From the UHGV virus genome UHGV-1366640: 64,000 bases of DNA. The stretch is one strand, 5' to 3'. Made by a program: the position numbers and the translations under genes. The notes beneath the pieces were generated by a model. The model was not told the origin of the DNA. It saw only the letters and a list, made by a program, of their open reading frames with translations, and made no database searches. The DNA is from a virus. This document shows positions 23,841 to 49,529 of this stretch, in pieces (within the stretch, counting starts at the first letter, position 1; each line of letters begins with the position of its first letter).

Positions 23841-23914
23841 CAGGGTGTGGCTCAATTTGGTAGAGCACAGCATTTGGGATGCTGGGGTTGTGGGTTCAAA
23901 TCCCATCACTCTGA
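23841..23914 (+). tRNA. tRNA-Pro (anticodon TGG).
   Basis: Cloverleaf folded by hand. Acceptor stem CAGGGTG/CACTCTG, D stem GCTC/GAGC, anticodon stem CAGCA/TGCTG with loop TTTGGGA, T arm GTGGG-TTCAAAT-CCCAT. CCA is not encoded. Confidence 0.75.
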
Positions 23915-23921
23915 TTTTCAT

Positions 23922-23994
23922 AGGGATGTAGCCAAGCGGTGAAGGCACAGGACTTTGACTCCTGCACTCGCAAGTTCAAATCTTGCCATCCCTG
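23922..23994 (+). tRNA. tRNA-Gln (anticodon TTG).
   Basis: Acceptor stem AGGGATG/CATCCCT, anticodon stem CAGGA/TCCTG with loop CTTTGAC, T arm GCAAG-TTCAAAT-CTTGC. Confidence 0.75.
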
Positions 23995-46588: not shown

Positions 46589-46782
46589 AATGAAATTATG
46601 AAGATTTCTTTTGTATGTTGATGAGAACTCCCTTTTCAAGGATTTTGTTCAAATTGAATCAATTTATCAAGTTGAATGAATTTTATGAATATTTTGGGTA
46701 GATAATCATAGCATGCAATCTTTGATCAGGGTGTTCTTTATTCATTCATTCAAAAGGATAAATAAAGAAAGGATTGATAATT

Positions 46783-48105
46783 ATGGCAAGAACTCTTGCT
46801 GAATCTTATAATGGTGCTTCTGCTAAATTTGGTATAGGCACTTCTGCAAATGCACTTCTTAACAAATGGAACAAGGAAGTTTCGATCATCAATGAAGCTT
46901 TTAATGGAAAAGCAAATCCGGATAAAGTTCTTGGTACTGCTATTCTTCTTGAAAATACTGAAAGACACATTAGAAACTGTGCTACAAGAAATGCAATGTT
47001 CAGTGGTGTCCTCAATGAAGGTACGACTACAGCTGATGTTTCTTACTTCAAACAGTTTGCGTTCAACAACTTGATTGCAGTATATCCGAACCTGATTGCC
47101 CCTGAACTTGTTTCTTCTCAGCCGATGCTGTCAAGAGCTGGTTCTATCAGATACATTCGTGCTATCTATGGTAGCAATAAGGGTGGTATCAAGAAGGGTG
47201 ATACAATGTTTGGTCAGTATTCGCTTGGTGATCATCCTGCAGATGCTACATATTCCAGTGGCAGTGTTGAGGGTGAACTTCTTGGTACTGATGCTGCGAC
47301 TACGAATTTCAATCTCTCCTGGACTCCTGTAATTCCTGGAACTGTTGAAATCTTGTCGGGTGATGGTACTCTCACATATCGTGATGATTCCATTGGTGGT
47401 ATCGTATCTACAGCAGGTGCTGCTTCTGGTAGTATTGATTATGCAACTGGTAAGATCACATTCACTGCTGCTCCTGCTGCTGGATTCACTGCAAACTATG
47501 AATATGACAATGTTGATACTCTCCCGATTCAGGCTCCTGAGATTCAGGTTAAGATAGTTGAGACTCCTGTCTATGCAAAATCCAGAAAACTCAAAACTCT
47601 CTTCAGCTTTGATAGTGATGCTGACCTCTCGAATGATTTTGGTATTTCTCTTTCTGCAGAAATCCTTTCGATGAGTTCTGCACAGCTTAAGAGAGAAATC
47701 GATGATGAGATAATTATAGATCTTAGCACCAAGGGCACAGCTCCCGGGACTTCGTTTGATGCTACAGTTCCTGATGGTGTATCACTTGTTGATCACTATG
47801 CTGGTTTCCCAGCAGCTGTTGCAGTTGCATCGAATAACATCTGGAATGCTACTCAGGTTGGTAATGCATCGTGGATCATCGTTGGTCAGGATGCTGCTAA
47901 CATTGTTGAAGCTATTCCGAGATTCAAATCTTTGGGTGTAGTGAATCCGAAGGGATCTCATCTTGCTGGTTATCTTGGTAATCTTCCTGTGTATAAGTCT
48001 ACTGCTGTTGCAGCTGATGCATGGGTAGTTGGTTATAAAGGTGACAGTTTGTTTGAAGCTGGCTATATTTGGGCTCCCTATCTTCCTATTGAAAAACAAG
48101 TAGCT
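46783..48105 (+). CDS. Major capsid protein, exon 1. Proposed to splice to exon 2 at 49431-49529.
   Basis: ATG 46783 after AAAGGATTGATAATT. A 441-aa capsid-like protein at the capsid position. Its stop codon TAA (48106-48108) is the first triplet of the putative group I intron. Confidence 0.55.
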
Positions 48106-49430
48106 TAATTCACAATGAATTAAGAATCCCTCAGTGAACTCAGGGAAACTCCTAAAGCTCAATCTACCAAAGTCATACAGTGATGTGTGACTGGATGATC
48201 TAATCAATCATGTATGGTAACAAGGGTTGAGATGTTACAATGGACAATCCTGATCCAAGTCACTCTTTTGTCAGAGTGAAAGGAGCAACGACTATTAAGT
48301 AGAGCCAAATGGTACGGCAGTCTTGGAGAGCGTAAGTCCGTTTAATTCGAAGTGCTGATAATCATATGATATAGTCTGGTCTATCCAATACTTAATTGGT
48401 ACTGTTAGAGTTGTCAGTAGTCGAAAGACATAGATTGAATTAGTGAATTCTTATTTCCCAACATCCTCACATTGAAGGAGGTGAATGTAGTGTTAAAATA
48501 TCAGTGTCAACTGTGTGACAGATCTACTTTTAAGAACTGGAGAGATTTTGTTACACATTTACGACGACACAAGATCCGTAAGAAAGAGTATTTTGAGAGA
48601 TTTCCGTATATCTATCCAGAACCAGTTGGTGTTTATGGAGTTGACTATGTGACTTGTCCGATTTGTAATGATAATCGTGAATTTCAAAGTTTGACTCAAC
48701 ATTTGATAAATAAACATAAGATCTTAACTGAAGAGTTCTTAGTCAAGTTTCCAGGAAAGAAACTTTTCACAGAAAAGTATTCTAAGATGCGAGCTGATTT
48801 TTGTAGAAAAGGCTTGACAAAGAATTGGGCGGATCCTGAATATCGTAAAAAGAGATCAGAATACTGTTCAGAATTTTTCAGTAAAATTAATTCTGGCAGT
48901 AAGAGACCTGTTCAATCTGAAACAATGAAGAAGACTTTGAAACGATTGTGGAAAGATGAAGAATATTGTAAGAAGCAATCTGAACGAATGAAAGAAAGAC
49001 ACAAATCTGGGGAGCTTGAAAGACAAGTTCTTAATGGTTTCGGGAAGAAATGGATCAAGCATGAAACTTGGTATGGAAAGATAGCAACTCTTAAAAGTTC
49101 TTACGAAGTCTATGTTGCTAAATTTCTTGATGAAAATAAGATCATGTATGAATACGAAAAGATGTATGAGTATCATGACTCTTATTCAGACAGGGATAGA
49201 AAATATTATGCAGATTTCTATCTTCCAGATTATAATATTGTATTAGAAGTCAAAGCTTCTTGGGCAATAGATCGTTATCAAGTTCTAAGAGATAAGATGC
49301 TTGCAGTTTTAGAAACTGGTACACGATATAAATATGTCACTGAACGAGATTTGGGAAAACTCGTCAGCTTGAAAGAATTCGAAATGCTAATTCAGAGTAA
49401 CAATAACGAATGAGTACACAACTTCTTATG
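48106..49430 (+). mobile_element. Putative group I intron (about 1.3 kb) in the major capsid gene, carrying a homing-endonuclease ORF in a 3' peripheral region.
   Basis: A structured, relatively GC-rich, ORF-free 360 nt runs from 48110 to 48470. It contains an S/P7-like element, GATATAGTC (48368-48376), and an R-like element, CGACTATTAAGT (about 48289-48300), giving a P7 pairing GACTA/TAGTC. The last exon-1 nucleotide is T (48105). The intron ends with G (49430). The downstream 99 nt are open in the frame needed to extend the capsid protein. Confidence 0.5.
48490..49413 (+). CDS. Intron-encoded putative homing endonuclease (C2H2 zinc fingers plus a PD-(D/E)xK-like nuclease domain).
   Basis: GTG 48490, 9 nt after GAAGGAGG. 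Zinc fingers CQLCD...HLRRH and CPICND...HLINKH. A basic repeat region. The C-terminal ADFYLPDYNIVLEVK has a D...(D/E)xK pattern. Confidence 0.45.
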   Translation: MLKYQCQLCDRSTFKNWRDFVTHLRRHKIRKKEYFERFPYIYPEPVGVYGVDYVTCPICNDNREFQSLTQHLINKHKILTEEFLVKFPGKKLFTEKYSKMRADFCRKGLTKNWADPEYRKKRSEYCSEFFSKINSGSKRPVQSETMKKTLKRLWKDEEYCKKQSERMKERHKSGELERQVLNGFGKKWIKHETWYGKIATLKSSYEVYVAKFLDENKIMYEYEKMYEYHDSYSDRDRKYYADFYLPDYNIVLEVKASWAIDRYQVLRDKMLAVLETGTRYKYVTERDLGKLVSLKEFEMLIQSNNNE

Positions 49431-49529
49431 GACGAAACCTTCACAGGTCGTCAAGGTTATTCGACCAGCTATGCAAAGAAGATGACAGCGTCAGACTTCT
49501 ATGCAACCAATACTATTACACATTCCTAA
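49431..49529 (+). CDS. Major capsid protein, putative exon 2 (32 codons, DETFTGRQGYSTSYAKKMTASDFYATNTITHS).
   Basis: An open frame with no start codon or RBS, beginning right after a G. It is in the frame that continues exon 1 if 48106-49430 is removed. Confidence 0.35.
   Translation, partial: DETFTGRQGYSTSYAKKMTASDFYATNTITHS

Follow-up and report, generated by a model that had tools for sequence, protein, structure and literature searches.

Group I introns are classical in phage genes, and subgroup IA2, which makes up over half of viral group I introns, is the dominant viral subgroup (PMC11835236). Examples are the introns of T4 (td, nrdB and nrdD/sunY) and of Staphylococcus phage Twort, together with the ribozyme of the bacterial IStrons. 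Two phages, mycobacteriophage LittleE and lactococcal phage Tuc2009, carry self-splicing introns in the gene for the major capsid subunit, and splicing has been demonstrated in both; the LittleE intron carries an endonuclease gene, and its splicing was demonstrated with reverse-transcription PCR and N-terminal sequencing (PMC3706429). The gut jumbo ('Jug') phages carry group I introns and endonuclease genes, PD-(D/E)XK types among them, in terL, nrdD and DNA polymerase, and metatranscriptomes confirmed splicing in about half of the cases (PMC12880540). Here we describe a related arrangement in a 64,000-nt stretch of the virus genome UHGV-1366640 (called the window below, with feature coordinates on its plus strand). 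An earlier note, made from the sequence alone, had proposed a group I intron with an endonuclease open reading frame (ORF) in the major capsid gene of this stretch. The proposal has been borne out by homologue alignment, covariation and an intron-less allele, and we put the probability that a mobile, IA2-like group I intron with an endonuclease interrupts the Gp23-family capsid gene of a T4-like phage at roughly 0.9. This reading rests on the interruption of the gene, its exact junctions, the covarying helices, the intact catalytic motif of the nuclease, and the presence or absence of the intron among related capsid genes, all of which we observe here.

The intron shares with the phage IA2 introns and the IStron ribozyme the order of its core elements (P1-P2-P3-P4/P5/P6-P7-P7.1-P7.2-P3'-(P8)-P7'-P9.0/P9, with an extended P9), and like the phage introns it lies in a phage protein-coding gene and places its ORF beyond the catalytic core, close to the 3' end. 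It differs in that its host gene is a capsid gene, in that P8 is absent, and in having no nucleotide match in a phage genome collection: when 46786-49529 was compared by blastn ('distant') with 50,697 phage records, nothing matched, and hence there is no annotated close relative. The placement of its ORF resembles that in nrdD/sunY, which is likewise outside the core and near the 3' end. The intron endonucleases of T4, Twort and SPO1 are GIY-YIG or HNH enzymes, and the one in the window is neither. The position of the insertion sequence in the IStron also matches that of the window ORF (PMC4227781). The capsids of LittleE and Tuc2009 are of the siphovirus HK97 type rather than Gp23, with no sign of sequence relatedness to the window, and the LittleE endonuclease is an HNH enzyme encoded on the opposite strand, whereas that of the window is a PD-(D/E)XK enzyme on the same strand as the capsid gene. 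The 'Jug' phages, too, are metagenomic and have intron-rich essential genes, much as relatives of the window have two or three introns in one capsid gene, but their introns average about 206 nt in genomes of 360-400 kb, compared with 1319 nt, ORF included, in a T4-like genome of about 98 kb. Because capsid-gene introns of phages are already known, the finding adds a member to a familiar intron class and leaves the general picture of phage introns unchanged.

Splice junctions of the capsid gene

The ORF that runs from ATG 46783 to the TAA at 48106-48108, the stop already recognised in the earlier note, encodes a Gp23-family major capsid protein (Pfam PF07068, 7.6e-44; also PHROG 138, 'major head protein'). 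Its unspliced translation aligns to positions 14-327 of the 376 in the Gp23 profile and leaves the final 49 uncovered, indicating that the C-terminus is absent from it. Searching with the hypothetical spliced capsid protein as query, we found 775 relatives, seven of which, at 63-69% identity, are uninterrupted proteins of 468-478 amino acids (aa). These run unbroken through PYLPIMSTQLLMDETFTGRQGF, and the alignment across the junction reads ...APYLPIMSTQLLMDETFTGRQGF... / APYLPIMSTQLLMDETFTG / ...GYIYAPYLPIMSTQLLMDETFTGRQGF.TSYGKKMT.SDFY.... The window encodes ...GYIWAPYLPI (APYLP-I at 48088), followed by EKQVA and a stop. Because EKQVA and the stop are absent from the homologues, EKQVA is intron read-through and not capsid sequence. 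The capsid frame reopens at 49407-49526, where it reads R-MSTQLLMDETFTGRQGYSTSYAKKMTASDFYATNTITHS and a stop, so that RMSTQLLMDETFTG... is encoded and MSTQLLMDETFTG... starts from 49410. The earlier note had proposed that homologues ending with exon 1 would speak against the intron; instead, the homologues continue past the end of exon 1 with sequence that the window encodes downstream of the endonuclease ORF, an outcome in favour of the intron.

Three junctions restore the frame, and only 48089|48090 combined with 49408|49409 gives an Ile codon (AU+A) together with a U at the end of the exon and a G at the end of the intron. Exon 1 (46783-48089) then consists of 435 codons and the first 2 nt of the Ile436 codon; its last base is U48089, and its end at APYLP-I was placed by homologue alignment. 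The IA2-like intron (48090-49408, 1319 nt) starts with U48090 and closes with the omega-G 49408, boundaries drawn from the homologue alignment and the intron-less allele on contig L028; the in-frame TAA is located 16 nt into it. Exon 2 (49409-49526, with the stop TAA at 49527-29) opens with A49409, which completes the Ile436 codon, and continues with the peptide given above for the reopened frame. It contributes the third base of that codon and 39 codons, or 40 residues counting the split Ile, and these restore a conserved C-terminus in which the conserved residues are kept. The predicted spliced product has 475 aa. Its PF07068 score is 170.3 bits, up from 151.1 bits unspliced (cutoff 24.4), and the end of profile coverage moves from 327 to 356 of 376.

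In the intron-less relative L028, both exon parts are contiguous in the DNA (...CCAATC ATGTCAACTCAG...). The window intron is inserted after the second base of the Ile codon of PYLP-I-MSTQLL, a conserved motif. The predicted junction in the spliced RNA (48089/49409) is ...CUUCCUAU|AAUGAGUACA..., also written ...GCUCCCUAUCUUCCUAU|AAUGAGUACACAACUU..., and the predicted junction-spanning peptide is GYIWAPYLPIMSTQLLMDETFTGR (the PYLPIMSTQLL region). The synthetic form of the intron-less capsid site is GGCTATATTTGGGCTCCCTATCTTCCTATAATGAGTACACAACTTCTTATGGACGAAACC.

Other copies of the intron allowed us to examine both junctions at the level of RNA pairing. Starting from two truncated capsid homologues, P0024 and P0039, we reached contigs L002 and L003, whose capsid genes are split at the same point or 10 nt upstream by a similar RNA and an endonuclease ORF; pattern scans and nhmmer added L004 and L019-L024, and contigs with endonuclease homologues added L025-L027, for ten distinct copies. 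Exon 2 is divergent in L021, L022 and L023, and in L021 and L022 we located it by direct reading. At the 5' junction, P1 (48086-48103) pairs CUAU|U (48086-90) with AGUAG (48099-103) around the loop GAAAAACA and places a U48089.G48100 wobble at the splice site. The exon end and its guide covary, with four combinations among 8 copies: CUAU/GUAG (window, L025, L026, L027), CCAU/GUGG (L002), CUGU/GCAG (L022) and CCGU/GCGG (L003, L021). The earlier note had seen no convincing pairing between the exon end and an internal guide sequence by eye; at the corrected site it is present, from C48086-U48090 to A48099-G48103. The register proposed by Rfam for P1 (U48087) has three mismatches and was rejected, as the U48089.G48100 register agrees with the protein junction and covaries. 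P1 is followed by the P2 hairpin (48104-48124, CUUAAUUC / GAAUUAAG), at whose position L002, L022, L021, L003 and L004 have other complementary sequences. At the 3' junction, the omega-G 49408 is positioned by P9.0, in which GU (48379-80) pairs with AC (49406-07), a helix of 2 bp that bridges about 1 kb. P9.0 also covaries in 8 copies, as GU/AC (window, L002, L025, L027), AU/AU (L022, L026), UU/AA (L003) and CU/AG (L021), and its pairing and covariation confirm the 3' splice site at G49408 independently of the protein.

The earlier note had provisionally placed the splice sites at 48105|48106 and 49430|49431, a choice that also obeys the rule of exon-terminal U and intron-terminal G. With those sites, however, the protein would gain EKQVA and lose MSTQLLM in comparison with every homologue; there is no P1 U.G at 48105, where the 48104-48124 hairpin is Watson-Crick throughout and behaves as P2; and the covariation of P9.0 indicates G49408. 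We therefore give them next to no credence. The 5' site lies 16 nt upstream of the one first drawn and the 3' site 22 nt upstream, with the capsid frame open from 49407 rather than 49431. Accordingly, the extension of the capsid protein starts seven codons earlier and has 40 residues, split Ile included, instead of 32; the product measures 475 rather than about 473 aa; and the junction peptide changes from ...IEKQVA|DETF... to ...APYLP-I-MSTQLLMDETF....

Gene callers annotated the locus as three separate genes of 441, 307 and 39 aa, as if the capsid gene ended at 48105 and were followed by an intergenic, free-standing endonuclease gene with a structured RNA, the 39-codon ORF being a small gene of its own. 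Such an arrangement, which the earlier note had named as the alternative, is very improbable, given that the homologues of 468-478 aa are continuous through PYLPIMSTQLLMDETFTGRQGF, that L028 has both parts contiguous in its DNA, that without splicing the product falls 49 positions short of the end of the Gp23 profile, and that P1 and P9.0 pair exactly at the junctions inferred from the protein and covary there. With the intron recognised as an interruption of the gene, the correct annotation is one 475-aa capsid protein and not three 'hypothetical' genes. The same mis-annotation recurs in a group of related metagenomic phages, some of which have two or three capsid-gene introns.

Ribozyme helices

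With E-value thresholds, the Rfam group I model RF00028 aligns over its full length to 48078-48398. The match scores 35.6 bits, with an E value of 2e-5 for the 64-kb window, in which it is the single intron match, and of 5.7e-7 when 1.8 kb were scanned. The stretch after the capsid stop is free of ORFs for about 380 nt up to the endonuclease start, in keeping with the earlier note. Its description there as locally GC-rich holds weakly: the ribozyme has 38-40% GC, which is below the capsid exon (41-45%) and above only the endonuclease ORF (33-35%). We derived the secondary structure by comparing the copies, and a script checked the complementarity and order of each helix in 5-7 of them.

The core helices P3, P4, P5, P6 and P7 are all present, including the pseudoknot of P3 and P7. 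In P3, UCAGUG (48131-48136) pairs with UGCUGA (48353-48358); 93.3% of cells are paired across the 10 copies, four of the six pairs have changed on both sides, and this level of pairing was reached by 0/500 shuffles, with slid controls at 28-45%. An alternative that places the 3' strand of P3 right after the 5' strand of P7 (UUAAGU with GCUUAAU 48103-09) was rejected in view of the strong covariation of P3 at 48131-36/48353-58 and because P7.1 and P7.2 account for the hairpins in between. The P4-P6 domain (48140-48284) is built from P4 (48140-45/48248-53), P5 (48150-52/48242-44) with the extension P5a-d, P6 (48254-56/48282-84) and P6a (48261-66/48273-78). RNAalifold predicted this domain independently from 9 copies, with 44 pairs, 29 of them compensatory, and a covariation term of -11.5 kcal/mol. 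P7 consists of 6 bp between GACUAU (48290-48295) and AUAGUC (48371-48376) and fits the Rfam consensus GACUA...GAUAUAGUC; the S element GATATAGTC (48368-48376) and the R-like element CGACTATTAAGT (48289-48300), which the earlier note had paired in this way, were both correctly recognised. As P7 is invariant in all copies, it carries no covariation information.

Between the 5' strand of P7 and the 3' strand of P3 lie two hairpins, P7.1 (48304-13, GCC-AAAU-GGU) and P7.2 (ACGG 48314-17 with CCGU 48338-41), the latter covarying as ACGG/CCGU, GUGG/CCAC and CUGG/CCAG. The 3' part of the ribozyme is a branched P9 domain (48379-48450). In it, P9 (CUAU 48381-84 with AUAG 48430-33) encloses P9a (48385-99), P9b (48400-19) and the conserved, GAAA-capped P9c (48420-29, GUC-GAAA-GAC), and P9.1 (48437-50) follows. 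P9 covaries as CUAU/AUAG, CUGC/GCAG, CCGU/ACGG, CUAG/CUAG and CACU/AGUG. MAFFT with RNAalifold recovered P9c only in this domain, the remainder being misaligned by length variation, so that P9, P9a and P9b rest on the scripted complementarity check. Subgroup IA2 is marked by a pair of hairpins in domain 7 together with an extended P9 that includes P9.0 (PMC4227781). Both features are found here, and on these hairpin criteria we term the intron IA2-like. The thermodynamic signal of the ribozyme region is modest (z-score -2.3); it is covariation, not folding energy, that gives the structure its real support.

By the established group I pathway, the late capsid transcript would fold into the ribozyme. 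An external guanosine bound in P7 would then attack on the 3' side of U48089, a base that the U.G wobble keeps in P1, and the freed exon 1 would in turn attack after the omega-G 49408, brought across about 1 kb by the 2-bp P9.0. Exon ligation would produce the mRNA for the 475-aa capsid protein. On RNA that stays unspliced, translation would end at TAA 48106.

The intron-encoded endonuclease and its distribution

The 307-codon ORF reported in the earlier note stands as drawn. It occupies 48490-49413, from a GTG that starts 8 nt after AAGGAGG to a TGA at 49411-13, and its stop falls 5 nt inside exon 2, so that the ORF overlaps the 3' splice site (49409-49413). The same overlap with exon 2 occurs in L002 and L022 (with TAA); the L025 ORF stops 2 nt short of the splice site. 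A weak hairpin at 48461-48484 (about -7 kcal/mol in a local fold) can pair CAUCCUC with GAGG of the endonuclease Shine-Dalgarno sequence, which is reminiscent of the Shine-Dalgarno sequestration described for T4 intron endonucleases; the hairpin is not conserved in the folds of L002 or L025.

Besides its own identical database entry, the protein has 15 relatives at 26-74% identity. With the single protein as query, phmmer found no match among Protein Data Bank (PDB) entries; a family profile was needed. That profile matches the T7 endonuclease I structures 3cae, 1m0d, 1fzr and 2pfj (E from 1.9e-6 for 3cae to 3.8e-5), and the catalytic residues E20/D55/E65/K67 of T7 endonuclease I align to E206/D242/E253/K255 of the window protein. 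In the family alignment, E206, D242 and K255 never vary, and E253 is conserved almost throughout (≥90%). The profile also matches the Ros zinc-finger structure 2jsp (E 0.011). Pfam assigns ROS_MUCR to 11/15 family members, DUF7487 to 9/15 and Phage_endo_I (PF05367) to 5/15 at E ≤ 0.01 (best 1.1e-6), in addition to C2H2 fingers. An AlphaFold model with a mean pLDDT (predicted local distance difference test) of 86.3 contains two small finger-like units, a helical region at 95-183 and an alpha/beta nuclease domain; searched whole with Foldseek, it gives weak matches, of which the top ones are PD-(D/E)XK nucleases (PvuRts1I, TnsA, AbaSI, Vsr; E ≥ 0.02). As judged from profile and model, the 307-aa protein is composed of two C2H2/Ros-type zinc-finger motifs, a helical middle and a T7-endonuclease-I-like PD-(D/E)XK nuclease.

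The nuclease domain and its four catalytic residues are thus common to the window protein and T7 endonuclease I (gp3), a PD-(D/E)XK Holliday-junction resolvase. In the window, by contrast, an intron encodes the domain, and it is joined to two zinc-finger motifs and about 90 residues of helical sequence, whereas T7 endonuclease I is a structure-specific resolvase and not site-specific. A PD-(D/E)XK intron homing endonuclease, I-Ssp6803I, has been characterised; a single-protein PDB sequence search detected no similarity of the window endonuclease to it. Literature searches found no homing enzyme with an architecture of zinc fingers and a T7-endonuclease-I-like domain.

At the identical capsid codon position, the intron and its endonuclease family occur in the window, L002, L025, L026, L027 and the more divergent L022 group, whose capsid genes differ substantially from one another, and the intron is absent from the closest full-length homologues (P0002-P0008) and from L028. 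This patchy distribution is the usual signature of homing. A nuclease ORF encoded by the intron is therefore found together with presence and absence of that intron among alleles, and because the endonuclease sits inside a mobile intron, the 307-aa protein is most likely a homing endonuclease, with a predicted activity and target. When phages with and without the intron infect together, it would cleave the intron-less capsid alleles close to the site of insertion, and repair would copy the intron in.

L003 (4943-6102), L020 and L021 carry a sister intron, from the same ribozyme family, at a site 10 nt upstream that follows the first base of a Tyr codon (GCUCCGU|...G|AUAUGCC). The PD-(D/E)XK nuclease that it encodes has the same fold but fewer residues (235 aa in L003); it aligns only to 54-288 of the window protein, the first zinc finger being unaligned or absent. 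One conserved capsid motif thus contains two neighbouring homing sites, and a zinc-finger, T7-endonuclease-I-like nuclease at one of them with a sister intron 10 nt away forms a natural series for the study of target-site choice.

The window capsid gene has one intron only, and several relatives have two or three. Their extra group I introns with endonuclease ORFs divide the same capsid gene into up to three pieces, and at least one is found in another gene. The extra sites lie at 1055-1616 in L002, 2735-2849 and 8076-8180 in L003, 5333-5455 and 6454-6803 in L021, 2043-2181 in L023, and 659-1525 in L026, and some of these introns score well over the Rfam threshold (64.6 and 79.4 bits). More distant introns with a common P4-P6 sequence, TCAGGGAAANTCCTAAAGC, are present on the IMG/VR contigs L005-L018. 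In at least three of these (L006, L011, L012), the ORF split by the intron encodes ...DGDEMNMH..., a catalytic motif that belongs to a beta-prime-like subunit of multisubunit RNA polymerase, which indicates that the ribozyme lineage has spread across different viral genes.

The missing P8 and the genomic setting

Several results weigh against the interpretation of the locus as a working mobile intron. The RF00028 score given above lies below the gathering threshold of 50, so that membership is not established by score; among the homologous introns, which score 40.6-52.8 bits, one (L023, 52.8) exceeds it, and the others reach 40.6-48.1. The covariance-model check suggested in the earlier note therefore came out in favour of the intron, with a match over the full length, but with a score short of the threshold, and for this reason we sought independent evidence in relatives and covariation. 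We found no convincing P10 by eye, the P1 loop having no complementarity to the start of exon 2. The window endonuclease itself reaches no Pfam threshold, PF05367 included. Nucleotide identities between the window and L002 are 82.6% for the ribozyme, 73.7% for the endonuclease, 72.7% for exon 1 and 62.7% for exon 2, values similar enough between intron and exons that they do not demonstrate recent horizontal transfer or separate vertical descent from homing. Alone among the ten copies, the window intron lacks P8, a core element, and above all in view of this loss, splicing is something that we infer from sequence.

P8 would be expected at 48359-48370, between the 3' strands of P3 and P7. The window has 12 nt there, UAAUCAUAUGAU, with a minimum free energy of 0.0 kcal/mol, and the nine other copies have 22-62 nt that form hairpins of 5 to >12 bp (-1.1 to -14.6 kcal/mol). 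P8 is also deleted when the window copy is aligned to the Rfam model, which accounts for part of the shortfall in score. A 4-bp P8 (AUCA/UGAU) was considered and discarded, as its loop would be 2 nt and RNAfold gives 0.0 kcal/mol. Literature searches found no natural group I intron without P8, and we know of none.

Compared with L025, the gap resembles a clean hairpin excision (AAUCU[...]UAGAUAAUGAU in L025, AAUC-AUAUGAU in the window). This, and the window being the sole copy of ten without the helix, would fit a deletion made in assembly or sequencing, the real phage having a normal P8 hairpin. We consider such an artefact improbable: the entire intron core recurs without a difference on L001, an ENA contig named independently, although shared reads are possible, and the inverted repeats measure 7-13 bp, far below assembly k-mers.

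If the deletion is real, the copy may be crippled, with self-splicing abolished or severely reduced and the capsid gene either non-functional (a defective variant that depends on helpers, or a dead-end genome) or dependent on a protein cofactor. Twelve unstructured nucleotides in place of a hairpin would agree with this, as would an Rfam score about 10 bits under that of the closest relative, L002 (35.6 vs 45.6). However, the copy retains all other helices, the U.G wobble, the P7 sequence, P9.0, the omega-G and an intact endonuclease ORF, along with an intact exon 2 and its conserved residues. Furthermore, the capsid protein is recorded on three contigs, and the identical intron core of L001 points to a replicating phage, and the length of P8 is highly variable in the family. 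A crippled copy is thus unlikely in our estimate, if clearly less so than an artefact.

Since the other catalytic and splice-site parts, the exons and the endonuclease ORF are intact and the capsid is indispensable, the window intron is likely to splice in vivo, the loss of P8 notwithstanding. At odds slightly short of even, the ribozyme may splice well enough without P8 to supply the capsid, either unaided or with its own endonuclease as cofactor, in a locus that would also hold an uncharacterised family of homing endonucleases. A precedent for a resolvase-like cofactor is the resolvase-derived Mrs1, which acts on the yeast bI3 intron (PMC2813881). Should the P8-less copy splice, it would be a natural minimal ribozyme variant. 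Across the ten copies, peripheral and even core helices are gained and lost in modular fashion (P8 here; P7.2 and P5b-d in L024). The ribozyme has a minimal relative on the minus strand of L024 (ADGC01007061.1, 314-771), which has neither P7.2 nor P5b-d but keeps P8, a pattern of helix loss opposite to that of the window.

The host gene lies in a T4-type head-gene neighbourhood, with Portal_T4 (a T4-type portal), Peptidase_S77 (a prohead protease) and a gp13-like gene as neighbours, and its product scores above the Pfam threshold for Gp23 and has T4 gp23 structures as the nearest solved structures in the PDB. The source genome is that of a T4-like phage known from metagenomes alone. The three contigs on which the capsid protein is recorded measure 50-200 kb (JGI, ENA), and the one that we retrieved, L001, has 98,224 bp. 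Promoter and terminator scans around the capsid gene gave chance-level results only. By eye, GATAAATA is present at 46757-46764, 18 nt upstream of the capsid ATG, where a sigma-70-type scan gave nothing above chance; it matches 7/8 positions of the T4 late-promoter consensus, TATAAATA. Elsewhere in the window, two adjacent tRNA genes (23841-23914 and 23922-23994, Rfam tRNA 65.5 and 67.5 bits) are the sole Rfam matches at the gathering threshold.

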